A stretch of DNA of 63,222 nt, counting the filler. It is 12 parts of 12 records of this genome, joined end to end, with 100 filler letters (N's around TTAATTAATTAA, not from the genome) between each part and the next. Parts side by side here need not be neighbours in the genome. Positions count along the whole stretch, not along the records: positions 14,260 to 21,751 come from SRR7504441_2919; 11 more parts are not named here. The stretch is one strand, 5' to 3'. A model generated the notes under the pieces. It ran no database searches. It had not been told where the DNA came from and saw only the letters and a list, made by a program, of their open reading frames with translations. Each line of letters begins with the position of its first letter. The stretch's first letter is position 1. This document shows, piece by piece, positions 5,511-55,593 of this stretch. The translations under genes and the position numbers were made by a program.

Positions 5511-5610
5511 NNNNNNNNNNNNNNNNNNNNNNNNNNNNNNNNNNNNNNNNNNNNTTAATTAATTAANNNNNNNNNNNNNNNNNNNNNNNNNNNNNNNNNN
5601 NNNNNNNNNN
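5511..5610. other. Artificial contig linker (N44-TTAATTAATTAA-N44); same linker at 14160-14259, 21752-21851, 25038-25137, 31604-31703, 36248-36347, 41179-41278, 44598-44697, 52401-52500, 55594-55693, 59444-59543
   Basis: Identical 100-nt spacer with stops in all six frames, 11 copies; genes are cut at these points, so adjacency across linkers means nothing. Confidence 0.99.
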
Positions 5611-6710
5611 ATCCCTGGAATAGAACAAACATGAGGTTACTTCGCCTTCTTCAACAAGACTATTTTCGCTTGAATCGCTATCTATGTTCTCGACCCGCAC
5701 TCCGCCTTCCCAAACCGTATGCTTGCCACCTCTGAGAGGGTAGTTGCTGGTAGCAGTGCCAGTGCAGTAGGAGAGAGGCGGGCAGCTGGTGCCAGGCCCC
5801 TGATCACACGGACCACCTGCCCGCCGTTGTTAGCAACGGTTATCCCTGGTACCTGCCCACCGTTGTCTGTTGTCACAAGCCAGAGCGTATCGTTGAGCAT
5901 CCCTCGCGCCTCAAGCGCCTCGCTCACATTAGCGAGTGCCTGGTCAACGGCAGTCAGCATGCCTGCGAATGTGCGCCGCTTGCTGTCAGCGATCCTGCCT
6001 ATGTAGGGCCGCTCATACTGTGCCGGCACTTGCTCGGGTGCATGCACCGCCTGGAAAGCTAGGTAGATATACAGTGCTTGGTCCGTGTTATGCTGCTGCA
6101 CCACCTCCACAGCTCGCGCCCCAAACAACTCAGTGCTGTAGCCTCCATTTGCAGATTTGAGCGCCACCGAGCAATTGGCCCCGCATTGGCTGCGCCGGTC
6201 CCACCTGAAATCAAACCCGCTGCCCAGCTGCGGGCCCGGCGACTCGGAGCCCGCCCCGGCCCGGTGCGTGTAGTAGTCCTCCCCGCCTCCGTAGAAGCCA
6301 TAGAATGATTGAAATCCCCGAAAGGTCGGCGTGTGCGCCCAGCTGTAGTAGCCCATGTGCCACTTGCCGATTGCGTGGCTGGAGTAGTTGTGCAGGTACT
6401 GTGGGATCATCCGTTCTCCCAGCGGCACCCCGGCCGCGGCCCCAGCCCAGATCACCTGGTGCTGCAGCCCGAACCGCATCGGGTATTTGCCGGTCATCAT
6501 GCTCGACCGGGAGGGCGAGCAGACCGGCATGGTGTACAGGCTGCCCAGCACTACCCCGTCATGGGCCAACGAGTCTATGAATGGCGTATCGATCTGGTGG
6601 GATCTGAACCCGAGATCGTCCCATCCGAGGTCGTCAACCACCACGTGCATGATCACACCCGCCCCCGCGAATGACAGTCTGCAAAGCGCGACCCACCACA
6701 CCGTCTGCAT
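5611..6710 (-). CDS. Arylsulfatase B-like sulfatase (formylglycine type), probably secreted; 3' truncated
   Basis: VVVDDLGWDD, CSPSRSSMMTG (CxPxR), GKWHMG, YLAFQAVHAP, TDNGG; signal-like start MQTVWWVALC at 6710. Confidence 0.92.
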
Positions 6711-7004
6711 CTCCAGCAACACACGCAGCAACGGAAAGCCTGGGTACTTGTACATGTACCAGGTGCAGTACTGATCATGATATCGATACACTGAATGTAC
6801 CAGGTATGACTGTATTTTTGACATCACTTCTAAAATTATTGCACGCAGCATGCATGCACAAGCACGAACAATTGCAAGAAGACCACAATGTCATTGATTT
6901 GGGCAACAACCAATCTGGTGCAATACGTACACGTCATTACAATGTCATGTCATTGAAAAGGGTGGGGTCCTTTACGGGTGCTTAATTAGGCAATCATGAA
7001 TCAA

Positions 7005-13936: not shown

Positions 13937-14259
13937 AGGGCAGCTGTGCACTGTCTTTGACTGCTGCAAACCAGCCGAGCATCACCGCACATGATCAGTC
14001 CAAGTGGTGTGTTTTCGTCTGTACTATTGATAATGACATTGTAATCAATTAATTGTGAGCCATCGATATGCGCAAATGATCCTCCTGAAAATTATTACAA
14101 GTACGACGAATGTAATCAAACAACGGCGGCGATATATCGATCTGCGGCAATGATTGCATNNNNNNNNNNNNNNNNNNNNNNNNNNNNNNNNNNNNNNNNN
14201 NNNTTAATTAATTAANNNNNNNNNNNNNNNNNNNNNNNNNNNNNNNNNNNNNNNNNNNN

Positions 14260-14991
14260 GCTGGCGGCTGGCAGCCGGGGAACGTGGCCGACGATGCGAG
14301 GTGGCCGGCGGGTGGGCGGTGGGCTGAAGGCGGTGGCAGGTCTAGTGCGGCCAGTTGCAGCTCGTACACCTGTCCCGACCCGGGGATCCCGGCCGCCCAG
14401 CCAGCCGAAGCCGGGGACTGGACCCAGCGCAACCTGCCCAAAGCTAAGCGGCTGAAGACGACCAGCACCCGGGGCAACTTGAAGAAGGCCGAGCTCCAAT
14501 CCGAATGCCAGCGCCTGGGGATCAAGGCGTACGGGAATCTTGAGCAGCTAATCCAGCGGTTGGAGTACCATGACGAGCATGGCTTCGAGAGGTCGCAGGG
14601 CATGGCTAGGCTCAAGCAGGAGTGCAGGAACAGGGGAATGACGGTGGGTGGGAATCTCGGGCAGATATTCGCGCGGCTGGAGCAACACCACCGGTGTGGC
14701 TTTGAGCAGTCGCAAACGTCACCCTGGCTGAAGGCGGAGTGTGAGAGGAGGGGCCTCGCGGTGGGGGGCAACGTCGGTGAACTGCTCCAAAGGCTGGAAC
14801 GGCACCAGGCGTTTGGCTTTGAGCGGTCTCTGGGGCAGCGTCTGCTGAAGGAGGAGTGCAGGAAGAGGGGCCTTGAGGTGGGAGGGAGCGTCGGTGTCTT
14901 AATGGATAGGCTGGTGCTCAACTATTGTGTTGATCCGATGCGATCACCGCAGGAGAAAGCCCTCGCACTCCAACTGCTGCAAGAGAATTAG
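14260..14991 (+). CDS. Protein with four tandem SAP-like DNA-binding repeats (5' truncated)
   Basis: 39-aa unit LKxECxxRGLxVGGNxGxLxxRLExHxxxGFERS repeated 4 times; probable intron 14301-14339. Confidence 0.75.
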   Translation, partial: AGGWQPGNVADDARWPAGGRWAEGGGRSSAASCSSYTCPDPGIPAAQPAEAGDWTQRNLPKAKRLKTTSTRGNLKKAELQSECQRLGIKAYGNLEQLIQRLEYHDEHGFERSQGMARLKQECRNRGMTVGGNLGQIFARLEQHHRCGFEQSQTSPWLKAECERRGLAVGGNVGELLQRLERHQAFGFERSLGQRLLKEECRKRGLEVGGSVGVLMDRLVLNYCVDPMRSPQEKALALQLLQEN

Positions 14992-15172
14992 ATATTTAGG
15001 GAGCTCGTCGCTCCTTTAGCGAGTTCATGCTGCTAGATGTTTAGTATGGATGACTCAAAACAATGCAATTGTATTCGTGTCACGTGATTAAATCATTTAC
15101 GTACAGTATGTACATGTAAACTTTTCGTACAAGTACATTATTACGAAGTTTTTTATGTGAAATCTTCGACGT

Positions 15173-18100
15173 TTAAGCATGTTTGTGCTTCTTTGCATGA
15201 TTCACCCTATGGCGTTTCCGCTTCTCGCCTTTCATCACCTTCTTGTGCGCAAACTTTTCCGGGTTGACCACCGCCTCAACTGCTGAGGTGGCCTTTCGCT
15301 TGCGCCTGTTCTCATCCATGTGGTTCCGCACAGAATTGTACGCTGCAGTGAACTCGTTGGCACCGACCCTTTTCTCGACTAGCGCCAGCACCTCGTGTGC
15401 AAGCGGCTCGAGCTGTGCGGCATCGTACCCGACCTCGCGCTGTGTGGAAACTCTAAACAGTGGCGCCACTATTCGAGCAAGGTTGGCTACCACCACCTCT
15501 AGCTCAAGCTTCAGACTGAGCGCCGCCAGGCACCGAAACACACACTGCCGCTTGATCAGACCCCGCGTCCGGCCAAGATAGGCCAGCCTCCGGAACAACC
15601 AACCGGCAGGGGCCGCGCCGGACGCCTCCTCCTCGTTGTGCTCGGCTGGCTCGTCGGTGTTATCGTGTGCGTCGCCACTCGAAGGGCTGGCGAGGTATGC
15701 AGTGGCCACAAACACAATGTTCTTTGCGACCTGCTCGCCGAGCTGTTGATCCAACAGCTCGCTGGTCAGCTGGTTACACAGCTTGTTCCCAATCCGGCGT
15801 AGCACAGTCGCATCAGCCAGCCAGACCGACCCGCCATTCGCCCAGAGCCCAGCCGGCCCGCCTACCAAGCTGAAGCTCAGCCCGAGCAGTCGACATGAGG
15901 CTGAGCGGATCCAGCTATGGTTATGCAAGAGGAGCTCGGTTACCGCTGGCCACACGGCCTTCGACTCAAACAACCCCTGCGCCTGCTTCGAGGCCCCTTC
16001 CAAAACTTTCTCCGCAGTCCCGAGAGCATAGTACACCAGCCGCCAGGTTTGATCAGCGTCATCGGAGGGCTCTGCAGAAACCTGGGCTGCAATCAGCTCG
16101 GCCACTGGTGTGATGGCTTTCTCAAGAAGGGCCGGCGACACCACAGTCGGCCCGAGCTCACATAATAGCCCGATGACCTGTGCTGCGGCAGCGCACAGCG
16201 CAGTCTTTGAGCCGGCCAGCCAGTCGAGACTCTGTCGAATCACTTGCTCAATCTGAGATGAGCCCAGCCTATGGAACATCGCTTGCATTGCGTGGGCCGC
16301 CGCCTTGCAGCATGAAGGCTCGTCGTCGTTCACCAGACGAAGCACCAGCGGGAGCAGGATGAGCTGGTAGTGCTCGCGGATCAGAACTTCTGGGAACTGG
16401 TCGACAACCTGGTGCACCATTTGGAGTGCAGACAACCGGCCACTCGAGTACTCGTAGCCCAGGTGCGACAGAATGAACTCCAGGTGCCGATGCAGTCGCT
16501 TTGGTGAGAGTGGGTAATGAGCTAAAAAGTGCAGGAACAGCTCCCTGCAGGTCTTTCGCGAGGCTTCGAAATTGGCTTGAATTGCCAGTTTGGCCACCTC
16601 TTCCATCACATCGTAAATCTCGGCGATCACGACTTTGTGCATGATTACCCCCTTTATAATGCCAAAGCACACAGACTGGCGTTCTGGATCATCCATGTTG
16701 ACACTGGCCAGACCGAGCATCACCTCCAGCTGCTCGTTCGAGAACTTGAACTGGGGCAAGTCCCGCGACAGCGTGGCTAATAATCGGAAAGAAGCTTTCA
16801 CAACCTCTCCAAGGTCGTTCCCTGCATCCTGTAGAAGTGCGAGGATGTCCCGCGCTAGTATCTCAGTGTGCGTGGAGAAGGCTGGTAATTCTACCTTCAT
16901 CTGAATCATCCGTTCGGCACACTTAAGGATACAGGTCCGTGTGGTGTCGGCTGTGGAAGCCTTGAGAAGCCCCGTGCAGAGCTCAAACATCTTGTTCAGC
17001 TCGGTGACACACTCCTCGGTCCATTGCTTTTGCTTCAGACCAGCAAGTAGCAGGCCGAGACCAAAGTCTATCAACACGTGGCTATGCCTGCATGAGAACA
17101 TCAAGCAAGGCTCTCAGAAGGACGGACCTCTGGATGTTGCTCATGGTTGTCGACCTCCGTTTCTCGTCGATGCTAACCAGATGCCTTCGACGCTGCAAAG
17201 CAGGAATTTAGAGCAGACTTCAGGCAGGTGATCAAGGCCTAGTGTGGGTAGCATGTCAGCAAAATTGGAACTAAAATATTTCACTGGAGACGTAAGATAC
17301 GCCTGCTCACTAGTAGGTCTAATCCTCCATGCATGCACCCAACACGCCCAGGATCCAGGGAGGAGATCACCTTGGCTGGTGAAGGCTTCTCTTGATCATC
17401 TGCATCGGCTGGAGCAGAGTATTTTGCCACTAGATCTGCCAACACAGGGATGTTAAATTCTGGAAAGCTGCTAGATGCACACCTGTAATAAAAGCTAGAG
17501 CCGACTGGCCGGTGAAACCAGGATTAGACGAGAGTCCGGAACCAAAGCGCATCAGCGCCTGCTGAATGCGTGAAACTAACGCGATCCGCTCTGATGCATC
17601 AAGTGCCTCACAGAGGGGGTTCATGACTTCTTGGATTGCGTCGGGGAATCCAAGCAAACGGCCAAGCAGCTCGAACGAGTCGAACGACTTGGTGCCGCGA
17701 GTCTCTTTGCCTTTCTGAGCAATTGCTTGAACATCTTTCTCCTTTGCAATCTCGCCAAAGACGTCATCACAAAGAACCTCGAGCAATGGCTCTGCGCAGT
17801 AGTCCAGATCGCCTGGGTGTGCCGACCCAGCATGATTGGGTTTAGCCATCTCCACAAGCAGCGAGTGGACAGTATAACCCAGCACATGCGCTTCAAACCC
17901 CCTTCGTAGAGCGAACTGTAGCTGACTGAGAACATAACCAAAGTATCCAGGCCCTAGCACGCCAATACAACGAACAAGCGAAGTCCGTGCCCCATCACGA
18001 ATCTGTTGCATCCGAGATTTCAGCTTGCCGCACAGTGGAATAATGATTCTGGGAAGCGCTGCTTGACGAACAGCCGTTGGGAGCATCTTACAGACTTGCA

Positions 18101-21100
18101 CAGCTGCAACAGCAACATGCACCTTGTGGATCTCAAAATTGTCTCCAGAGCGCATGTATCCTTGAAGCATCGGCAGAATGCTATTAATCAGAATACCCTG
18201 GATCTTTTGCCCAAGCGTGGCGGCTTTCTCCTGCGCCTGCTGTTGATCATACAGTGACTCTTCACCCTCCTCCTCCTCCTCGTCGTCCTCGTCAAGGTCG
18301 GCATCCTCTGCGTCGATATCCTCGTCTTCCTCTCCATCTTTGGCAGCACCCTGATCTTCAGAAATCACAAAGGTCCGCTGGCTCTCCGTGGCATAGAGCA
18401 CCTCTTCTTCGCCATTTTTGTTCTCAGTACCATCGCCTTCCTCGTTACCTTCATCATCAATCTCAGCTGCGAGATCCTGCTTCTGAGTTTGTGCAATCTC
18501 GGCCACCACTGCTGAAGCCTGCTTCTGTAAAGTTGTCGTGGCCTGTTGAGCGATATCAAAGTGGAAGCTGTCCAGCATCTCGGTCACAGCCCGCACCATC
18601 AGCCTCTCTAGCTCTGGCTTCGAAGCAACCATCCGCAGAAAGCTGGTCAGAAGCGCGTAGTACTGCCTCCAGTCCATTCGCGCAGCAACCCCTCCAAGCG
18701 TCCGGATCGCCTGCGCCGTGGTGTTGTGGCTGTCTCCCTTGGCAGACTTCTGTAGAATTGCCAGCGTCTCTTCCTTCTTGGCATTGGCTTCAGTAATAAA
18801 CGGATTGATCAGCGGCACAAGCACATCTGATAATACATTCTGTGGGAACATGAGCGCCTCGTCGCGCACAGACTTGTTCAACTGCTGCAGGGCCCGTGTC
18901 CTGCGGTGCACCTGCAAGTGTGTCAGATTAGTGAAGAAATCCTTCTCGCCATCATCCGAGCAAAGCACGGCAAGCGATTCATGTTCGGAAGGCGTTGCTG
19001 CTACAACCGCACCGAGGAGTCGAATGAATACAGCCCGCTGGCTCTCTTTCTTGTGGTGGAGCCCTCGACGAGCTGCAGGGTAAACAACGTTCCTCACCAG
19101 CTCAGTCACCCATCGCTCCGGGTTCTGCTCAGGGGTTGACTTGGAGACTAATGTCTCGATGGCACGAGCTGAGACGTTGCGGATCGACAATTCGTCTTGA
19201 GACATATCGTGTATCAGCTGCCAAACCACCGGCAGCGCTCCAACCCGACCAAGCTCGATGATGCCTCCGTCCACAAGGGGTGCAGCTGCCGCGGCCCTAG
19301 TGTCGTAATCAAACTCCTCAGCCACGCCATCAAGATAAGCATTGAGCTGTTGCAGAAGCTTTGCAGTCGGTGCGAGGTCGGGCGTCTTGCCAGCAATCTG
19401 GTTAAACAGTTCAACCAGTGCTGTGCGTCCACGGCTGTCAGCAGTCTGTCCAAACTGCCCAGACAGAAACGACAGGTGTTGCTCACAGACCACGTTGCCA
19501 GCCAGAGGGAAGAGCTGACCCAGAATAGTGAGCACACGGTGCCTTGCTGCACCAGCCATCTTCTTATCGTAGCGTAAAAACTTGATCAACAGGTTGGAGA
19601 GCGATTCAGCCTGCTCGGCGCTGTCAGCATAGACCGCAAGCTCCGACAGGAGCGCCAGCTCATGCTGTATAGCCCCAGCACGGGCGACAGTAGTAACCAT
19701 CGCGTGCAGCTGCTCCAGGAGCATCGAAATCCTGGACTTGATTATCTCTTCAGAAATCGCAGCCACCTCAGTGCCAGTGCTCTCACGGTGCCTCAGAAGC
19801 GACTGTACTGCTGCAAATGCCGCCTTGCGCAGGTCGTGTGACATGCCACGAGTGACCTGTCCGATGCAGCTGACAACCCCGTCCCAAAGGGTAGGCTCGC
19901 TGCCAAACATTAAGAGTAGAGGCTCATGAGCAGCAATGGTACTGGCGATCCTCATCAGCTTAGGCCTATGGGGTGCAGTGTTGTCCTCAAGTTGTGCAAA
20001 CAATGGTGCCAGCGGCGCTCGCAGCTTGTCAAAGTGTCCAGTCTCCGATGGAAACGCCTCCATGATTTCACACACTCGAGATAGTGCCTCGACTTGGCAG
20101 GCTGCATGCCCTGACCGCAGCCTGGCATCGTCCTCTTCTTGGCTCGGCTTGATCTTAGCCACAGCTGTATTGCTTTCAATGGCACCCACAATCACTTGAA
20201 TTAGCCTGCCCAGGTGTGCCAGCATGTGCGTGCGCATGGATTTCAGCATGTCTACAAGAAGGTGCAGGAAGCCTGAATAATGCCCAACTGGTACTTTCGC
20301 ATTGCCCGACTCGAATGGGCTCAGCAGCATGCTGAAGAATGGACCAGACTCTTCTGGTGTCATGTGACCCACATACGACAGCCAAAGCGCCCTCCTGGAG
20401 GAGTGGGCATCTTTGCCTCCTCCGCGCTTGATTGTGCGATCCATCAACCGACCAACTGCAATCCGCGAAACCATCTCGAGAGCAGCAGGCCGATGCTCCA
20501 GAGCGATTGATGAGTTATGAGGATCGAGCGAGAATACTACCATGAGATCACGAGCCTTGTGGCCCTTGTTTGTCAATTGCAGCAGCTGCTGCTTGTATGC
20601 GTTGAGGCCCTTTATTTTCCAGGCCAGAACGCTTCGAACTGCATTCTCCTGCAATTCAGAATCGGACTGCGAGCAGAGCTGCTGCAAGAGGTCTTTGAGC
20701 TCTTGAGCACGGAACAGTGCTGCAGGTGCTCTGAAGAGGGCGAACAGCTTGAGATAGTCCAATAGCCGCTGCTTCAACACCTTGCGGTTGCCGACTACAC
20801 CTTCGCCTGTGAGCAAAGAACTGGCCCCACGGATGCTACTTGCTGGGCCATTAATAAAGCCGAAGAAGGTGTCCAGCCAGTGGCGGCTCCGCTTCTCTAG
20901 CAAATCCGGCACACGCTGAAGTATCTTCCAGAGCTCCGTGTGCAGCAGACTCGCTGAAGTAGGCGCAACCCCCTTGGCAAAGTGTGCAGCCACCCAACTG
21001 GCAAGTTCGTTCTCATCTGAATCAGGCTCGGCGACATCCTCGGCCTCCGCATCCAACTCCTTGTCTGCCTCGTTAGAAGCCATCTTCATCGCCCCAAGAA

Positions 21101-21751
21101 GCGCGTTCCACACAGGCTCGCTGGCATCGGAAGCAATCTTCTCGATCAGCTCTCCCACTGCGGCCCACACAAAGCTGGCCCTCACGTTGAGCAAAGAGAG
21201 CGCGCAGATGCACGCATGCTCGGGTTTACTGGTGGGCAACCGGAGAATCTGCAGACGAATGTTGCGGGAAGCCGCCAAGGTCGGTTTAGTGACTGTGAGT
21301 TCCAGTGCCTTGGACCACAGTTCGTTATCAGGGTCGACAGCTGCAAGCATTTGTAGTGCGGCAGAGCGGCGGGTGGCCTCTCTCGAGTTTCTCAGCATTT
21401 GAATCATTTCATCCTGGACTCTTGCTCTAAGATCATCAGGGAGGACGCCTGCTGTTGAGTTCTTCAGCCACGTTGCAGCTGCTTCGACCAGGATGTTGCT
21501 ACCGCAGTGCGCGAGGGCTGTGCTGACAACTTTTTCGGGGGCTAGATCAACATCAGATCTGCATGCAGCGAGTGCTGCTGAATACAACAGTTGGCTCACG
21601 GGCGAGGCTTTGCACTGAAGCCTAGTACTAGCAATGGATAACGCCTGCGATCCAGCATTAGTGCTACCAGAGAGGAGTGCACCTGGCGAATGACTGCTTG
21701 CAGGGGCCCCGTGTCCAGTTGGGCTGCAGCGATTGCTTGTAGCATAGCAGC
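15173..21751 (-). CDS. UTP20: U3 snoRNP-associated protein 20 (SSU processome HEAT protein), 5' truncated
   Basis: LRRGFEAHVLGYTVHSLL, HSHVLIDFGL, LGYEYSSGRLSAL, HSWIRSASCRLLG, basic C-terminus; introns, including 17193-17370, restore one frame. Confidence 0.92.
17242..17345 (-). ncRNA. Candidate intronic box C/D snoRNA (possible U6 snRNA guide)
   Basis: Lies in an oversized 178-nt intron. Terminal stem gtgttgggtgcatg / catgctacccacac; D box CTGA next to the stem; non-canonical C-like ATGGAGGA; GTTCCAATTTTG before the D box is antisense to conserved U6 AAAAUUGGAAC. Confidence 0.6.
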
Positions 21752-21851
21752 NNNNNNNNNNNNNNNNNNNNNNNNNNNNNNNNNNNNNNNNNNNNTTAAT
21801 TAATTAANNNNNNNNNNNNNNNNNNNNNNNNNNNNNNNNNNNNNNNNNNNN

Positions 21852-26816: not shown

Positions 26817-28131
26817 TCACTGGCGCTCGCGGTGGGGTGGCAACGGTTTTTGGGAGACTCGTTGGTTCCAGTTGAGTTGAGCTACGATGCTGTCGAGCCA
26901 CTCCTCCTGGTTTGGCTTCATGCTGATCGTGGGGATGCTTGATGCTGAGGCGCACACTTGGACCGAGTCGCCCCGGTGCAGCGTGCTCGGGTGTCGCCCA
27001 TCGAACTTGACTCGGGCCTCGGTCCGGGCTCCGGCCGGCACCACCACCTTGATCACAGTCGTGTCTGGCAGCACCAGCGGCCGGAATGAGAGCGTGTGCG
27101 GGCAGATCGGGGTGATCACGAAGGCCCGTGTCATCGGGGACATCATCGGGCCGCCGGCGCTCATCGAGTATGCTGTGCTGCCTGTCGGGGTCGAGATGAT
27201 CAATCCGTCCGCCTGCACGATGGTGACCAGCTCGCCCTCCACGTGCAGCTCGAGCGCGGACAGCCCGAACTCGGGCCCCCGCTCTATGATCATCTCGTTC
27301 AGCGCTAAAAAGCTCCGGGGCTCCGGCTGGCTCTGGCCTGCCCTCCAGATCTGGCCCTCCAGCCGCATCCTGGGCGTGACCAGCAGCGGCGAGGCGTGCC
27401 CAGCCGTGAGTTTTGAGAGCACCGCCTCCCGGTCCTCCCAGAGCACCGGAGTCAGGAAGCCCAGCGAGCCCTCCGCGAAGCAGATCACTGGGGGTACCGA
27501 CCCGCTGCCGTCAAACATGTGCGCAAAGTGGAGCAGCGTGCCGTCGCCCCCGAGCACCACCGCAAAGTCTATCACCGCGCCCGGGTCCTCGGTGCAGCAC
27601 GGGAGCATCCCCGGGAGCTCATCCAGGGCCGACGGCTCGCAGAACACTTTGATCCCGCGCTCGGCCAGCCAACGGCCGACCATAGCGGCGTGCTCGGTCA
27701 CCAGAGGGTCCTGCCACTTCTTGACCACCAGGCAGGTCTGCGGCGGCCGGCTGAACTTAATCTGCTTCTGCGGCCGCGCCTGCCCGAGGTCCGGCCCCGC
27801 CCGACCAGCCGGCACCTTCATATCCTTGCGGATCCCCAGGGGCCCTAGCGGGGTCGGGGCGCTGCAGTTGTCCGCGTTGCACTCGATCAGCAGCAGCTGC
27901 CCGGCGCTCAGCCCCGCCCGGCGGCGCCCGCACCTCGGCCCGCTGCAGGTCGAGCGGTGGGCAGCCGTTCCGCGGCCGCTTGCGCGGGATATCCACCTCT
28001 CGCGGGGATCGGACCACTGATGGATCCAGCCGAGCGCCGGGCGAGCCGGGGAGCGCATCCAGCCGAGGGGAGGGGATGTCGATGTCCCGGCAGCCGGCCG
28101 AGCGGGGCGAGCTCATCAGCTCGTCCAGCAT
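26817..28131 (-). CDS. NADK: NAD kinase
   Basis: VLGGDGTLL, GSLGFL, ALNE, ADGLIISTPTGSTAYSMSAGGP, TPICPHTLSFRP; two short 5' introns; start MLDELMSS. Confidence 0.95.
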
Positions 28132-43713: not shown

Positions 43714-44573
43714 TTATAAATCTTTTATCGCTCTGCTTCGGCACTCTTTCTGATCACTACTGCTACTACTACTAGTGGGTTTAAAACCGTACAATGCCGA
43801 CCCGGAGCCGAAGATGATCATGCCGTCGTAGGCCACGCAGGCCGAGCTGCCCACCTCGTGCCCGGTCTCGAGCTCCCATTCTAGCTTGCCTTCCTGAGTG
43901 CTCAGCCCAAAAACCCGCCGGTTGTTGCACCCAAACACCACAAACCCGGTGCACTTGGACAGGGTGAGCGACGACTCGACGGGGGCGCCGGCCCGGAACT
44001 TCCATTTGACCTCTGGGGTGGGCGGCTGTGCCGGATCCTCAGAGAGCAGGTTCCGGATCCGGACTCCGTAAACGTACCCGCCCTGGGTGGCCAGGTACAG
44101 GTCGCCGTTCGGGGCCAGGCACGGCATCCCGTTCACGGCTGAAGACAGCTGGAGCTTCCATCGCACCCGCCCGTCATAGTAGAGCGCATATAGCCACCCG
44201 TCGGCGCTCCCAAAGTAGACCGCGCCCATGCTCCCGCCCAGGTGCCGGACCGAGGGCGAGCCGGTGATCTCGCCTCCAGTCTCAAACTTCCAACGGATCT
44301 TGCCGTCCTGCGGGCACCCTCTCATGTTCAGCCACAAGCCCAGGGCACACTCATGTTCAGAGCATAAAGCTTGCCGTCGCAGCAGCCCACGAACAGCTTG
44401 CCGCCTATGCTGGGCGCCGGGCTCGAGTAGACCTGTCCGCCGCACCGGGTCCGCCAGATTTGAGTCCCCTTGAGTGCATCCACGCAGTACACGTGCGAGT
44501 CGTTCGAGCCCACGAACACGCACTTGCTGTCCTTGCTCAGCCGCGGCGACGACCAGATCTGACCCCCCTCTCG
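43714..44573 (-). CDS. PQQ/BamB-like beta-propeller repeat protein (5' truncated)
   Basis: Repeats VFVGSNDSHVYCVDA, WKFETGGEITGSP, VYFGSADGWLYAL, WKFRAGAPVESS. Confidence 0.8.
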
Positions 44574-44697
44574 CCCCCCCCCCCCCCCCCCCCCCCCNNN
44601 NNNNNNNNNNNNNNNNNNNNNNNNNNNNNNNNNNNNNNNNNTTAATTAATTAANNNNNNNNNNNNNNNNNNNNNNNNNNNNNNNNNNNNNNNNNNNN

Positions 44698-44926: not shown

Positions 44927-46566
44927 TTAGTCGCCCTCAGTCAACGCCCTTTCGAGCGAATTCTTGATCGCATCCAATCGGGCTAACAGCTCCCCCGGGT
45001 TAGCAGCTGGTTCGCTCTGCTTCGAGTCTTCCCACGGCTCGGGCTCGGTGGCTTGGACACACTTCCTGCCTCCTAACGTATTTTCATGCCAGGCGTCAAG
45101 CCTGGCCTCAATCTGGCCTTGCCAGTACGCCTCAATTGAATTGCTCATAGAGAGCATCAGACTCCAATACGCCCGGCCAGTGAGCAGCCCGCTGTTTAGA
45201 TCGATCTTGAAATTGGCCATGTTCCTGTGCCAGCTGTGCACCGCTACCCACAGACTGCCGTAGACCAGGTGCTTGAGCACCAGCTTGAGATGCTTCATCG
45301 CCGCTGTCTTGAACCGTTGCTTGTGCGTAGCAAGCCGCTCGTTGAGCCGGCGCCTGTCACTGTACAGCTTATCGCTGAGCCGCTCCTGAGAGTCACACGC
45401 CTCCTCCTTCTCGGCCATCAGTTCACTGGTCACCGCCTTTGTCTTCTCCAGAAAATTAAACATTTTGATTCGTTCCGAGAACAGCGCTTTGCCTGCTGAT
45501 CGGGTCTTTGCCTCCGGTCGTTGGGGAGATTTAGGGGATGTCGACCGGGATAGCGTCTCGCGTACGTAATCCAGCCCGTAGTTGCGGTCCCGAGGGTCGG
45601 GCGATGCTGCCCGGTCGTGGGCTTCGCGCCGACAGGTCCAACAATTCCAGGCCCTTCTGAGCAGCCTGGAGCTGTTGCCCCCTCGGACCCAGCCGTCCAA
45701 TGCCTCGCTGCTCAGGCTGCTCGGCTCACCCGCGACTGCCTCAGAGCCCACCGGCGGTTGGCCGGGCTCGGTGTCGCAGGGCGCCGCCTGCTCAGCCTCC
45801 AAATCGACCCGGAGAAAACTCCGGTGCCACTGCCACTGCCAGCTGTGAACAGCGGCGCTTTGCTGGCGCAGCATGAGTCCCTTCAGCACCAGCTTTATCT
45901 GTGCCATTGCCGCCTTGTGCGCTATCGCCTTAGCCCGCTGCTCTGCCTTGCCCAAATCTCTTGCCTTCGCCTCAGTCTGCGCACGAACCGTGTCCAGCTC
46001 CTGACCCTTCTCTGCATTCTCACTCAACAGCTGGAGCTTCTCATTCCGCTGGCCGCTATACGCGATCTTCCATTTATGCTTGACTGCATCCAGCTCCTCC
46101 TGCAAGCTACTAGCCCTGGCCTCTGCTTGGCTGCACTCATTAGCTAGCTTGCCTATAGTGGCATCCCGCTCTGCTAGCTGCGCCTAAGCCCAGCCACACT
46201 CACCAGGTTAGGCGGCGCAGGCACCTCGATCTGCGTGGCTGCCTGCGCTGCCTCGTCGCTCCCCGGTGGCGGGGCCCGCCGCTCCTCGTCACTCGCTGGC
46301 GCAGCTTCAAGGGGCGCAATCTGCTGCAACCGTCCTCGGAACCAGCCAGACCCGTTCGCCGGCTTTGCGTCTCCAGAGGCCACAGCTTGGTCACCGCGTC
46401 CAGCCTTACTCGTAGGCCGCGCCCCAAACGTCGCGCCTGCCTCTCCAGCGGATTTGCCTGGCTCTTCTTCCACCACGACGGCTCCCTGTGTGAGCAGGTG
46501 GAGCTCCTGCAGCTTCCTGTCGTGCGCCTCTCTGCTGCACCGCCACCTCGCGTCTTGCGGGTCCAT
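44927..46566 (-). CDS. Coiled-coil protein with Sfi1-like Trp repeats
   Basis: One intron joins ORFs 46174-46566 and 44927-46105; repeats AAVHSWQW, LRRAWNCW, VAVHSWHR, ARLDAWHE. Confidence 0.6.
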
Positions 46567-46698
46567 TGGTCCGCGTCTTGCGTGCCAACTCAGTGCCTGC
46601 GGCTCGCCATCAACTCACCAACAGTGCGGTCGCCATCGCCCCAACGGCTGAACGGCAGCCCAGCTCCGGACTCAGTTTCTAACCCAGCTCCCGCAATC

Positions 46699-49197
46699 AT
46701 GGTCAGCAGCATGTTTACCTTGCTAGTGCTTAGCATGGCGCTCGGGCTCGCGGGCTGCACACAGCCGGCCCTGGATGTGGACTGGGCCGGCTTCCTATCC
46801 CGGCACGATCTCCAATGGAGCTTTGACTACTCGCCGCACTCCGAGCTCATCCCGGTCTTCTGGTGGGAAGCGGGTTACATCGGGAACGGGATGATGGGTG
46901 CAACCGTCCGAGTGGACAACAGTACCTGGCCCAACCCGGGCACCGCCAAGCTCATCATCGCCGTCAACCGGGTGGACGCCTGGGTCGGGAGTACCCCGCC
47001 TTCCTCCGACAAAAGCGGCTATCGCCGCACCCCGATCGGCTCGCTCTGGCTCGATACGGGGCTGCCGTGGGACGGGCAGGGCCGGATCGAGATGTCGGTG
47101 CGGCTGCACGACGCTGAGCTCCAGGGGCGGGTCCTACTCCAAGAAGCCCCCGCGCTCAGCTTTCGCTGCCTGATCAGCGCCGCCCGTCTGGCCGAGTCGA
47201 CGCTTGTTCTTGACATGAACAGCTCGGGAGCGCTGCCGGCGCCGGTGGTTGAGTGGAAGCCGTGCGCGGTGCAGCGAGGCCCGCGAGGGCCCGGGCAGGT
47301 GTGTGACCAATTCGCGCCGACCAATTGCTCTTGCGTAGAGACTGTCAAGGTCTCAGAAGAAAATCACAGCCCAAGCGTGTTCTACCAGCCCACCAACGGA
47401 TCCCGTCCAGGATTTGGGGGCGTTGCGGTTGCTGTGGCCACCCTGCCTCAGCAGGGCAACCGAAGCACAGTGTGGCTATCCACCAGCCAGAGTCTGTTTG
47501 ACCCGACACCGAGCAACGCTTCGATTCTGCGAGCATCGACTGAGCTGCAGGACAGGCTGGCGGCCGGGCTGGACGAGCTCGTCACTGAGCACAGGGCCTG
47601 GTGGCACGCTTGGTGGCCGGCGTCCTTCCTGTCGATCCCGGACACGCGGCTTGAAGGTTTTTATTACGCCAATGTTTACCGGTTTGCTGCAATAAGTCGC
47701 CATGGAGTGCACGACCTGGAGGCTGGGCTTGGTCCAGAAGGAGTGACCTGGCACTGGGGCGATTATATGTGGGATATGAACCCCGAGGTGACTTACTTTA
47801 TGACACATGCCTCCAATCGGCTCGACCTCATCAAGACGCTGATCGATGCATTTGACGACATAGATCAGTCATCTCACAAGTGGATTCGTTATGGCGGTAC
47901 TACTCCGTCTGAGCGCTATCTTCTCTGGATGTTGCGCAGTTACCACAAGTATACTCTGTACACAGGCGACGTGACGAGGCAAAGGGAAACACTCTATCGG
48001 CTGCTCGGGCTTGGTCTGTCTCAGATACCAATCTACCGGCTTCCAGACAGGCCGGCTGATGATTTCCGAAGCTCATCGCTGCTGGACGACGGAATTCACT
48101 ATCATGTAGTGGGTGTCACTAGTCCAGAGTACGGTGCAGACTGGAATTCAGACTGCAACTTCACTGCTTTGACGCATAATTGCACTAACACCAACTTCGG
48201 GATTGCTATTGTGAGCTGGGCGGTTAATTTGGTCCTCGAGCTCATCACAAAGTTCCAGATCCCAGACAACAAGACAGCCCTGTACCGTGATATCAGCCGC
48301 CGGCTTTATCCTCTGTCCTATGACGAGACGGGCTATATGGTCGATTGGGTACACCGATTTGAGAAGCCCCATCGGCACTGGAGCCATCTACTCGCACTGT
48401 ACGATCTCGAGATTGTGCCTATCACCAGGGAGCTGGCCGAAAAATCAGTCGATCGCTGGACCGGTCTGACCTGTAACGATTCGGTGCCATGCCCCACACA
48501 CTGCCGTGGCTTCACAAGAGGCATAGCGGGCATAATGAGCGCAAAGCTTGGCCGGGGTGCAGCTGCAGCGGGCAATTTATCCAAGTTGATTGATCCCGTG
48601 GTCGGAGTAATAACGCCCAATGGCATTTATGGCGAAGGCGTGACAGCGGCAGGACCGTATGAACTGTCGCCCTGCACCGAAAGCGCGTACGTCGGGTCAG
48701 CGGTTCTCCACGAAATGTTTGTCCAGGCGAATGCAGAGAATGTCACAGTTTTCCCTGCGGCACATTGGCCCGATTCTGTGTTTTACCACCTGCGTGCACT
48801 CAACGGTCTACTGGTCAGCGCAGTTCGCAAGAGTGGGCACACGCTGTTCGTGAGTCTCGAGGCCGTCGTGGCGGGCATGTTCAGGCTGTCCGTACCAGAT
48901 TGGACATCGCAACAGCCATCGGTGATCCCAACATCTGTACCGCACAAGCACAACGCAGACGGCAGCATCTCGATCCAGCTTGCTCAGGGAGACTCAGTCA
49001 CAGTTTACACTGGCTCGACTGTGCCGGATCTTCGAATTCAGCCCATCCAGAGCGATCCTTCGGGAGAGAACTACTTTGGCATGAAACGAACGCCAACGTG
49101 CATGTCGTTGGGGTGTTCGCCAGGGCCCATTTGGCCAACGTTTCAGAGCCAGGAGCAATGCAACTACGACTATTATTGCGACACTCATACGTGCTGA
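46699..49197 (+). CDS. Secreted GH95-like glycoside hydrolase (alpha-L-fucosidase-like), intronless
   Basis: Signal peptide MVSSMFTLLVLSMALG; YIGNGMMGA, HRAWWHAWW..SFLSIPD, WDMN, SPEYG, PHRHWSHLLALY. Confidence 0.8.
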   Translation: MVSSMFTLLVLSMALGLAGCTQPALDVDWAGFLSRHDLQWSFDYSPHSELIPVFWWEAGYIGNGMMGATVRVDNSTWPNPGTAKLIIAVNRVDAWVGSTPPSSDKSGYRRTPIGSLWLDTGLPWDGQGRIEMSVRLHDAELQGRVLLQEAPALSFRCLISAARLAESTLVLDMNSSGALPAPVVEWKPCAVQRGPRGPGQVCDQFAPTNCSCVETVKVSEENHSPSVFYQPTNGSRPGFGGVAVAVATLPQQGNRSTVWLSTSQSLFDPTPSNASILRASTELQDRLAAGLDELVTEHRAWWHAWWPASFLSIPDTRLEGFYYANVYRFAAISRHGVHDLEAGLGPEGVTWHWGDYMWDMNPEVTYFMTHASNRLDLIKTLIDAFDDIDQSSHKWIRYGGTTPSERYLLWMLRSYHKYTLYTGDVTRQRETLYRLLGLGLSQIPIYRLPDRPADDFRSSSLLDDGIHYHVVGVTSPEYGADWNSDCNFTALTHNCTNTNFGIAIVSWAVNLVLELITKFQIPDNKTALYRDISRRLYPLSYDETGYMVDWVHRFEKPHRHWSHLLALYDLEIVPITRELAEKSVDRWTGLTCNDSVPCPTHCRGFTRGIAGIMSAKLGRGAAAAGNLSKLIDPVVGVITPNGIYGEGVTAAGPYELSPCTESAYVGSAVLHEMFVQANAENVTVFPAAHWPDSVFYHLRALNGLLVSAVRKSGHTLFVSLEAVVAGMFRLSVPDWTSQQPSVIPTSVPHKHNADGSISIQLAQGDSVTVYTGSTVPDLRIQPIQSDPSGENYFGMKRTPTCMSLGCSPGPIWPTFQSQEQCNYDYYCDTHTC

Positions 49198-52679: not shown

Positions 52680-53942
52680 TTATATTTGCTTGCCGGTGGT
52701 TAGATCCCAGTTGTGCACAACCGAGGGCGCGCCGCCAGGCTCGTGTTTGAGCACTGCGAACTTGCCGGCCGACCAGCCGTGCACTAGCAAGTACAACGTC
52801 CGGTTGCCCCGCTCATCTTGCACATAGTGCGGCCAGACGTGATGCAGGTGCTTGAGCACAGGGATCCCGAGCTCACCCGGCTCAATTGTGGACAGCAGCC
52901 GCTCGCCGGAGTGGGCGTAGATCTGAGCGGTTCGGGCCGGGGTGTGCTGGATTGGCTCGAGCGCATTCATCACAAAGTAGTCATCGGCCCTCGCTATATT
53001 GCAGATCCTAGCGGTCTCTGGCAAGTCAGGCATGGCTCTGATCAGATCCCCATCCTTACTGAACTCGAGCACCTCGTGCGCTTCCCGGTTGGCTACAAAG
53101 ATGTTGCCATCGTGAGCGAAGACGCCGTGCGCAGTGTTGAACTTTCCTGGGCTGTCGCCTTTGCCGCCCCACGCGATTGGGCCCCACTCCCACTGACCCT
53201 GCTTGCGTTCTGCTGTCAGCACGAAGTCGCCATCGCAGTAGCCTGTAACCACATACAGCCTTCCGTCGAGGAAGGTGACATCGGTGCATGCGAATGCCGG
53301 CGAAGCGGGTGTGCCCCACGGGCACTGTTTGATCTGCTTCCGCGAGTAATAGTGGTTAGCCTCGTCGAAATTAAACTCGCCGCCTTTGGGCATGTCCATC
53401 TGCTGGAGCACCGTGCCGTCTATCCCGACTACAAGCACCCGCTGGTCGTCGTTCTGGGCCACAGCAATGCACGTGTCGCCCTCATGCTCGAACACTACTA
53501 TCCCGTGGATATTCCCCTTGAGCCGTTCGTCTGACCCGACCCGCAGCCAGGTGCGCAGGTCCGGACTGATCGCGCACAACCCGTAGCCGGGCACGCCGGT
53601 GTAGACGATCCCGGTGTTAGCGTCCTCGTTGAACCCGCCGTGCATGTCTCGCTCGAACGGCTTGGCCTCAGCCGGGAACGCCGCGGTGAGTTCTCGGTCC
53701 CACGAGAAGACGGCGTCGCCCTGGCCAGTGGTCAGGCTGACCGCATGCGTCTCTTGGAGCATCCCGGTCAGCTGAGCCACCTGGGCTTCCAGCCGGGCTA
53801 TCCGATCGCCGTCGGGCGAGTGGCTGCCGTGCGCCCGGGCCGGGCAGACGGCCATGCCCACCAGCGAGCCGGCCACAGCGCATCGGCTCCACCTGCAGCC
53901 CAGCGCAGAGCCCCGAGTGAGAAAGCTGGAGAATGCCCGCAT
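52680..53942 (-). CDS. NHL-repeat (PAL-like) beta-propeller protein with an N-terminal leader, intronless
   Basis: GGKGDSPGKFNTAHGV, IFVANREAHEV, CTDV..YVVTGYC; leader MRAFSSFLTR..VCPARA followed by a short coiled coil. Confidence 0.75.
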   Translation of the reverse strand: MRAFSSFLTRGSALGCRWSRCAVAGSLVGMAVCPARAHGSHSPDGDRIARLEAQVAQLTGMLQETHAVSLTTGQGDAVFSWDRELTAAFPAEAKPFERDMHGGFNEDANTGIVYTGVPGYGLCAISPDLRTWLRVGSDERLKGNIHGIVVFEHEGDTCIAVAQNDDQRVLVVGIDGTVLQQMDMPKGGEFNFDEANHYYSRKQIKQCPWGTPASPAFACTDVTFLDGRLYVVTGYCDGDFVLTAERKQGQWEWGPIAWGGKGDSPGKFNTAHGVFAHDGNIFVANREAHEVLEFSKDGDLIRAMPDLPETARICNIARADDYFVMNALEPIQHTPARTAQIYAHSGERLLSTIEPGELGIPVLKHLHHVWPHYVQDERGNRTLYLLVHGWSAGKFAVLKHEPGGAPSVVHNWDLTTGKQI

Positions 53943-54055
53943 CTTGCTTGATGATCGACCTGGAGTTCCAGCGGGACACCGTGGTCGGGCCGGCCCCGGA
54001 ACTTAGTAACGACCTGCAGCGTCCGTTTGGCAAATCTGCGCCGCGACCGTCCAAC

Positions 54056-55593
54056 ATGGCTGACGAGGAGAACAGCAAGCGCGAGGAAGACGAGGAGGCT
54101 AGCTGCAGGTCTAGAGCCACGAGGATGGCAGCGCCGCTGTTGCGGGAGGAGCCGGAAGGTCTGCCGACCGAGGAGCTCACGTTGCTCTTCGGGCGGTACG
54201 CATTCGCGCACAGCTGGAGCTTCTGGCGGGGGATGTGCTGGTCGGCGGCCTGGGGGGCGGCGCTCGGGCTTGTGGCGCTCGGGTACATGCAGCTGATCAC
54301 CTGGCTGCCTCAGCGCTGGCAGGGCGAGCACTACGCCAGCGACGCCGCCCAGGTGTGCCTGGGGTGCGGTAAGCCGTGGTGGGTTGGGCTCTGCGCGGGC
54401 GGCGGGCTGCTGGTGGGGCTGATCCGGTTCCGGTGCATGCCGGCCAAGCCGGAGGGAATGGTGCAAGAGATCGCCAGGCAGCGGGTGGATCCGGGGCACG
54501 CCCCGTGGGTGGCCGTCCTGTGCGTGCTCTCGCTCGGCTGCGGGGCCAGCGTGGGCCCTGAGGCCGGGCTGTGCTCGCTGGGCGGGGCGGTGGCTGCTGT
54601 TTGTGCCCGGCTCAGGAACCGGCTGCGGGAGCGGTGCTGCCCGGCATTGGGCCGGATGACCGAGAGAGAGGAGCGGATGAACACCATCACAGGCATTTGC
54701 GCGATGCTCGGGTCGCTGCTGCCGTCGCCCTTCCTTGCTGTGAGCCTGATCTCCGAGCTTGGCGGGCCCCAGATCTTCCAGCACTACCTCGAGTCGACAG
54801 CCCATGCCGCCGTGGCTGCCACGGCCTCCTTCGCAACATACCAGGCAGTAGTGGACAAGACCACGCTTCGGACGCTCCGGCTGCCTCTGAGCGTGAACGA
54901 TCTGGAGGACATTCAGCACTTCAAACCGGAATACTACCTTTACGCTATGTTGCTCGGGCTGGTCGGCGCGGGCGTGGCCATGCTCATTCTGGCGCTGTTT
55001 GCCATCTGTGGCAAGATCTTCCAGCGGGTCACCGCTAGATCGCGCTACGCGATTGTCTTGCTCTGCACGCTCACTGGAGCTCTCGTTGGGGTATCCGGTT
55101 ACCTGCTGCCTCTCACATTCGGGGATGGCTCCGAGCAGCTGGGTTCGCTGGTCGGTCCACTGTCAAACTGCGGCCCCGATTGCTACAGCGAGCCTCGTGC
55201 CTGCGGCCAGGCCCGGCACCAGGCACCGCTCTGCCACCACTTGATCAGCACCGAGCTTCTGATCGGGACAGCACTGCTCAAAATTGTGACTTTTGCGCTC
55301 AGCAGCAACCTCGGGTTCGTTGGCGGGATCATCTTGCCTAACGTATTCATTGGAGTGGCCGGCGGAGTGCTGGCTCACCGGGTGGCGCCGCAGTCGCTCC
55401 CAATTTGGTTATCCGTGTCCTGCATGGCCGCCGCAGTGCCTGGCAGCCTCGCCCCTGCGCCAGTCACGATGACGATCCTGCCAACACTGATGTTTGTATT
55501 CAACGGGCAGCAGATTGCGCCGGTCTTTCTTTCGGTGGTGGTCGGGTACTGCACAATGCACCTGATCCTGCTTGGCCCAGTAGTCAAGATGGC
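54056..55593 (+). CDS. Bacterial-type (YfeO/EriC-like) ClC chloride channel, intronless, 3' truncated
   Basis: Many TM helices; GASVGPEAG, GFVGGIILP, FGDG; likely start MADEENSK. Confidence 0.8.

Follow-up and report, generated by a model that had tools for sequence, protein, structure and literature searches.

A 178-nucleotide UTP20 intron of a telonemid-like protist as a possible host of a box C/D-type RNA with complementarity to U6 snRNA

The window analyzed here is a stretch of 63,222 bases made up of 12 short contigs, and one of these contigs (14260..21751) carries on its minus strand the 3' two-thirds of UTP20, a ribosome-biogenesis gene. The UTP20 frame is broken three times within 400 nucleotides (nt), and three GT-AG introns restore it. 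The largest of them, 178 nt long, contains in the sense orientation of its host gene a perfect D box, a helix directly adjoining it and an element complementary to U6 small nuclear RNA (snRNA), and might thus be the source of a box C/D-type small nucleolar RNA (snoRNA) guiding U6, a reading that is plausible but unproven and that falls somewhat short of an even chance in our judgment. The candidate RNA falls within the same contig, and the parts of the host gene that bear on it are the following.

15173..21751, minus strand: 3' part (two-thirds) of the UTP20 gene, recognized by the Pfam domains UTP20_N, UTP20 and UTP20_C and by similarity to T. subtile P0037
17482..17436, minus strand: neighbouring GT-AG intron of 47 nt, placed by the frame and the P0037 alignment
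17371..17435, minus strand: micro-exon of 65 nt, placed by frame restoration
17370..17193, minus strand: GT-AG intron of 178 nt, with GT at 17370 and AG at 17193 (exon end AAG/GUGAUC, 3' end UUUGCAG/C)
17128..17192, minus strand: micro-exon of 65 nt, placed by frame restoration
17127..17088, minus strand: neighbouring GT-AG intron of 40 nt, placed by the frame and the P0037 alignment
17365..17370, minus strand: 5' splice-site hexamer GUGAUC, paired with GAUCAC in the predicted fold
17228..17233, minus strand: GAUCAC, the predicted partner of the hexamer, about 35 nt upstream of the 3' splice site

The UTP20 gene is cut at 21751 by the end of the contig and terminates with a stop codon at 15173-15175. 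Its nearest full-length relatives in the protein collection share only 28% identity with it, and the closest match is the transcript-derived protein P0037 (1075 residues) of Telonema subtile (EukProt EP00656), with an identity of 59% in the last exon and of 65% around the junction of the 178-nt intron. By this similarity, the window stems from a telonemid-like protist, uncultured, marine and related to Telonema. Three aquatic or marine metagenomes contain near-identical DNA at shallow depth, and one marine polyadenylated (polyA) metatranscriptome has a few reads. Just 3' of the UTP20 stop codon, at 15099-15148, one metagenome contig carries several small indels and three substitutions; given the roughly 99% identity of the UTP20 coding region in that metagenome, the 3' untranslated region differs here at the level of strains.

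All three introns seen in the roughly 6.5 kb of UTP20 coding sequence cluster at 17088-17482, separated by the two micro-exons of exactly 65 nt each, and the remainder of the gene consists of two uninterrupted open reading frames (ORFs) of 1457 and 646 codons. The three introns share an AG/GU exon-intron boundary and a GCAG end. Excision of the 178-nt intron joins ..PSPAK to RRRHL.. in frame, and the spliced model gives one continuous alignment to the chytrid protein P0002, also a UTP20, with a single one-residue gap near the junction, and aligns across the junction with Telonema P0037 as well, which derives from mature mRNA and is five residues shorter at this position. A stop codon in the downstream frame lies 16-18 nt upstream of the acceptor, which is therefore fixed and cannot lie further upstream. 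The 178-nt GT-AG intron proposed in the original prediction is thus borne out both by the frame and by the transcript-derived protein of a relative, and because the spliced model aligns straight across the junction with P0037, no hidden exon is needed; this objection, which the original prediction had raised against itself, is removed by the P0037 and P0002 alignments as far as protein length can remove it. The further statement that the intron is about four times the usual size holds for 178 nt against 47 and 40 nt, although its basis is only two neighbouring introns of the same gene. An intron-size census by ORF bridging was too noisy in this GC-rich, intron-poor window to give a size distribution. 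Among the papers listed by a literature search on telonemid genomes and introns, none dealt with the nuclear introns of this group.

Within the 178-nt intron, where the window coordinate equals 17371 minus the intron position, the candidate RNA consists of the following elements.

17332..17345 (intron nt 26-39), minus strand: 5' strand of the terminal stem in the predicted fold
17320..17330, minus strand: C-like region, read either as AUGGAGGA (17330..17323) or as AGGAUUA (17326..17320)
17260..17271 (intron nt 100-111), minus strand: antisense element GUUCCAAUUUUG, complementary to human U6 nt 26-37
17256..17259 (intron nt 112-115), minus strand: box D, CUGA, found in the sequence and by motif scan
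17242..17255 (intron nt 116-129), minus strand: 3' strand of the terminal stem in the predicted fold, starting directly after box D

The terminal stem comprises 13 base pairs with two single-base bulges, five perfect pairs adjoining box D, and its description in the original prediction agrees with the predicted fold. The same is true of box D, which is a perfect CUGA (17259..17256) placed directly against the 3' strand of the stem and 63 nt from the 3' splice site, a distance that leaves room for a branch site downstream. The element GUUCCAAUUUUG stands directly before it, ending 1 nt upstream, and its 11-mer occurs once in the window. The C-like box is as deviant as had been predicted, being canonical in neither reading: AUGGAGGA keeps the core GA.GA with one extra base, and AGGAUUA matches five of seven positions. 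Read from the sequence, each version could form a kink-turn-like motif with box D. In the first register, the stem G35-G39/C116-C120 is followed by a 4-nt bulge and by G44.A115, A45.G114, G46.U113 and G47-C112; in the second, the stem G39-G43/C116-C120 is followed by a 3-nt bulge and by G47.A115, A48.G114 and U49.U113, with U50 opposite C112. Both registers would thus provide tandem G.A pairs with box D, the first one having G.U in place of U.U.

The stretch of U6 to which the antisense element corresponds is conserved in animals and plants and altered in yeasts. Human U6 nt 7-65 are printed with their numbering in the available part of PMC3936739, where AAAAUUGGAAC occupies nt 27-37 and is preceded by U26, in agreement with the numbering used in the original prediction. 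Against this human sequence, GUUCCAAUUUUG forms 12 contiguous pairs, namely G.U26 and 11 Watson-Crick pairs, just as predicted for the 12 nt before the D box. The D+5 rule is followed in perfect register: the fifth guide base upstream of box D pairs with the equivalent of human U6 A30, the position named in the original prediction. The 2'-O-methylations listed for human U6 in the accessible portion of a review (PMC5855946) are A47, A53, G54, C60, C62, C63, A70 and C77, and the pseudouridines are 31, 40 and 86; A30 does not figure in this list of ribose methylations, which accords with the earlier statement that it is no known vertebrate U6 2'-O-methyl site, and its neighbour U31 is modified. 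Nothing relevant to U6-A30, Am30 or mgU6-30 turned up in a literature search.

In Arabidopsis, RiboMeth-seq detected eight 2'-O-methylated nucleotides in U6, among them U27, which is assigned to the C/D snoRNA SnoR167 (PMC8053127, Table 3, the part of that article on which we draw). Arabidopsis U27 would correspond to human U32 with an offset of -5, which is suggested because the shared sites A48, C57 and A65 of Arabidopsis match A53, C62 and A70 of the human list, or to U31 with an offset of -4; in either case it would lie inside the same U6 motif, and the A30 equivalent predicted here would be 1-2 nt away from the plant methylated U. This precedent raises the plausibility of a C/D guide acting on this stretch of U6 and lowers its novelty. 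A U6-like gene on the plus strand of the intron was considered and rejected, as only the 12-mer matches and the Rfam U6 model gave no match.

How unusual the elements are was assessed separately for the antisense element and for the layout of boxes and stem. Calculated analytically, a 12-bp duplex with at most one G-U pair in exact register before a CUGA would arise by chance with a probability of about 5e-5 if U6 is the only target considered, and of about 0.004 if rRNA and snRNA targets totalling an assumed 7500 nt are allowed. The relaxed layout, defined as a ..GA.GA box, CTGA and at least five adjoining Watson-Crick pairs with the boxes 40-110 nt apart, arose in 35 of 20000 shuffles of the intron itself, and looser definitions were satisfied in 435, 440 and 6232 of 20000. 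The antisense element is the stronger signal of the two, and the evidence for more than chance is mixed overall.

If the intron does host a guide RNA, this would be an intron-encoded box C/D-type snoRNA of about 90-105 nt, spanning roughly 17345..17242. After splicing and debranching, exonucleases would trim the intron back to a ribonucleoprotein (RNP) nucleated on a kink-turn-like motif formed by the C-like box, CUGA and the adjoining terminal stem, and we infer that the core proteins would accept the deviant C box and that the trimmed RNA would accumulate. The 12 nt before box D would then pair with the single-stranded U6 stretch just 5' of the ACAGAGA box (equivalent to human nt 26-37), provided that telonemid U6 shares this motif, and fibrillarin would place a 2'-O-methyl group on the nucleotide facing the fifth base of the guide, which corresponds to human A30. 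In favour of such an RNA are the size of the intron (178 nt against 47 and 40 nt), its sense orientation and its location in a ribosome-biogenesis gene, the perfect CUGA against a helix together with a GA-containing C-like box placed for a kink-turn, and the 12-bp antisense element in exact register to a U6 stretch that guide RNPs reach. The complete proposal, that is, an intronic telonemid C/D-type RNA that lacks UGAUGA, forms a variant kink-turn and guides methylation of U6 at the A30 equivalent, is put forward more tentatively still, as the less probable side of the question.

Several known systems are related to the candidate in one respect or another. According to the available text of PMC5855946, the vertebrate U6 C/D guides mgU6-47, mgU6-53, mgU6-77 and MBII-166 resemble it in that they are excised from introns, carry the antisense element just upstream of box D and direct D+5 methylation. 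Their C boxes, however, are canonical where that of the candidate is deviant, and their targets are A47, A53, C77 and C60, located in or near the ACAGAGA box and the internal stem-loop of U6, while the site predicted here is the A30 equivalent; Rfam detected no similarity between them and the candidate. Arabidopsis SnoR167 is a C/D snoRNA that, if the site has been mapped correctly from the excerpted table, serves the same 5' single-stranded stretch of U6, the plant target being a U located 1-2 nt 3' of the A predicted here; the likeness noted here is one of target site, and most plant snoRNAs are not intronic according to the part of PMC5122169 at hand. The human H/ACA RNA ACA65 is the presumed guide of U6 pseudouridines 31 and 86 in the accessible text of PMC3884663, so that the nucleotide beside the predicted site is reached by a guide RNP, albeit one of another RNA class (H/ACA) and with another chemistry than the candidate. 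A different kind of parallel comes from splicing itself. Long yeast introns contain "zipper" stems, long-range helices that reduce the distance between the 5' splice site and the branch region. The arms of the 178-nt intron (nt 15-58 and 97-142) can similarly pair as an imperfect 35-bp helix that leaves about 55 nt outside, and unlike a C/D RNA, a zipper stem requires neither a stable RNA nor boxes.

This last comparison leads to the strongest alternative, which is almost as likely as a U6 guide: the sequence would be an ordinary long intron that yields no stable RNA, and its CUGA, stem, GA-rich C-like box and complementarity to U6 would all be coincidence. At most, the helix would shorten the distance between 5' splice site and branch site for a spliceosome tuned to introns of about 40-50 nt, and the 55 nt remaining outside the helix are indeed near the size of the neighbouring introns. 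A number of observations weigh against the guide RNA, and many of them also speak for the ordinary intron. On both strands of the window, the relaxed layout was seen twice against 2.41 expected from 200 dinucleotide shuffles (standard deviation 1.5), and because of this lack of enrichment the layout alone proves nothing across the window. The second instance, at 48248..48151 on the minus strand, has a canonical GUGAUGA (0.075 expected per window), a CUGA and a 6-bp stem; it was rejected as a C/D RNA, as it lies antisense to an ORF of 1012 amino acids (46159..49197, plus strand) and is most likely a chance look-alike, and canonical-looking false positives therefore do occur in this same window. 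Moreover, the candidate was picked from a very large scan, in which rare coincidences turn up now and then.

The architecture of the candidate adds to these doubts. Both by sequence and by scan, the RUGAUGA box C is absent from the 178-nt intron, the flipped-out U is lacking in both C-box registers, and the second register is without the closing G-C pair. In canonical kink-turns, this bulged U is normally recognized by Snu13. No D' or C' boxes were recognizable in the intron, with no second CUGA between the boxes and CUUA and GUGAAAU as the only, degenerate, internal candidates; such degenerate internal boxes are also found in many genuine snoRNAs. The 3' half of the guide is mostly paired in the ensemble of the naked RNA (unpaired probability 0.04-0.11 for nt 106-110). 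Folding energies are unexceptional as well, the whole intron reaching -49.7 kcal/mol (z -0.77, 41 of 200 shuffles as good) and the 117-nt core a z-score of -1.22 (21 of 200 shuffles as good); the opposite strand of the intron has a z-score of -0.41.

Searches for an RNA family, for transcripts and for conservation did not point to anything beyond an intron either. With the covariance models of Rfam release 15, there was no match at gathering score in the window and none at E<=10 over 17100-17480. This silence carries little weight, since the canonical-box control at 48248..48151 also drew no C/D family; it does mean that the Rfam check called for in the original prediction, which was carried out, gave no known family and hence no match to a known rRNA-guiding one. 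No rRNA was found in the window. In the polyA metatranscriptome, four pieces of 151 nt match UTP20, all of them in exons and none across a joint, which says nothing on splicing or on a stable RNA. The contigs of one metagenome differ within the intron at 17309 and 17360 and by a 1-nt deletion at 17245, at a depth of 2-3 that is too low to be interpreted, and none of these variants falls in box D, the guide or the C-like box. A metagenome scan with telonemid UTP20 peptides returned 71 pattern matches and not one confirmed relative locus. Canonical C/D RNAs with this guide were sought in metagenomes by the pattern TGATGA, 38-68 nt, TTCCAATTTTNCTGA, which gave at least 124 matches at no fewer than 120 loci. 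Among the matches listed, the flanks paired over at most 5 bp with G-U included (8 of 124 rows), TTCC at the guide was preceded by G in 17 of 124, and TGATGA at the C box was preceded by A or G in 59 of 124, so that all three features look random. No C/D family emerged among these listed matches, many of which look like prokaryote coding sequence, a weak negative in a collection that is mostly prokaryotic with few protist contigs.

Set against the ordinary intron is the small joint chance of its coincidences, since the layout appears in 0.2-2% of shuffled introns and the antisense match in about 0.4% of cases against all assumed canonical targets. The long-range helix on which a structural role in splicing would rest is only mildly unusual, as the best duplex between the intron halves (-36.6 kcal/mol) is matched in 30 of 1000 shuffles. 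In addition, the 5' splice site is itself paired in the predicted fold, its hexamer GUGAUC being perfectly complementary to GAUCAC at 17233..17228, which would be of no help to splicing.

A considerably less probable explanation is that the intron does encode a genuine C/D-type RNA with another target, be it rRNA or another RNA, or an orphan or decaying snoRNA, and that the U6 match is fortuitous. Most C/D snoRNAs guide rRNA, which speaks for this explanation, but the 18S stretch AAUUGGAAU proposed as a weaker target forms a shorter duplex than U6, the 12 contiguous pairs with U6 are longer than any rRNA match known to us, and a match of this length to U6 alone is as improbable by chance as stated above. 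The 18S alternatives amount to about 7-9 pairs with mismatches and are not known to correspond to a methylated site. An apparent placement of the D+5 base of the guide on a conserved 18S site (Am541 of yeast) was dropped, as a re-count puts Am541 4 nt away.

It is quite unlikely that the core of the intron is simply a long imperfect hairpin, whether left by an inserted inverted-repeat element or acting as precursor to a small RNA of another class. An insertion would explain the extra length of the intron, and the 35-bp pairing of the arms, with the energy and shuffle rank given for the best duplex, would suit such an origin. On the other hand, nothing longer than 12 nt from it recurs anywhere in the 63-kb window, the helix contains many bulges and three G-U pairs, and the overall fold energy is ordinary.

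Least probable by far is that part of the 178 nt is coding, through an in-phase donor GUGAGC at intron nt 61 (adding 20 residues) or a small internal exon: the junction does fall within a linker of low conservation, the initial 60 nt stay in frame and match exons in GC content, and no RNA read spans the junction (four exon pieces in all), but the Telonema protein is five residues shorter here and not longer, the chytrid protein aligns with its single one-residue gap, the GUGAGC donor is without the AG/GU exon end common to all three introns, and the downstream frame has its stop codon 16-18 nt upstream of the acceptor.

As to the remainder of the window, its 11 joins (at 5511-5610, 14160-14259, 21752-21851 and eight further positions) each consist of 44 N, TTAATTAATTAA and another 44 N, the spacers being six-frame stop spacers, and contigs flanking a join need not adjoin in the genome. 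A run of C's at 44570-44597, at the end of a contig just before a join, may be an artefact of assembly or amplification. Long single ORFs are located at 5685-6890 (minus), 26820-28112 (minus) and 53921-55593 (plus), with sulfatase, NAD kinase and CLC chloride-channel domains, and a Pfam search on ten long ORFs of the window found mostly single-exon domains. Introns seem to be sparse in the genes of this organism.

Should the U6-guide reading turn out to be false, the intron would still be a useful illustration of how a box D, a helix and an antisense match of 12 nt can come together in one place. If it is true, Telonemia, a deep-branching group beside the SAR supergroup (stramenopiles, alveolates and Rhizaria) whose genomes are scarcely described, would have its first proposed snoRNA, and a binding site for the core proteins would be seen to function without UGAUGA. 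Intron-encoded C/D guides for U6 are already known, and the novelty would reside in the lineage, in the site predicted and in the C-box variant. The site itself would be a new ribose methylation of U6, within the stretch bordering the ACAGAGA box that contacts the 5' splice site region of introns. Taken with the Um27 of plants, it would point to tuning of this part of U6 by guide RNAs in several lineages, and the modification of U6 just 5' of ACAGAGA would in that case be an old and recurrent trait, served by different guides in different lineages.

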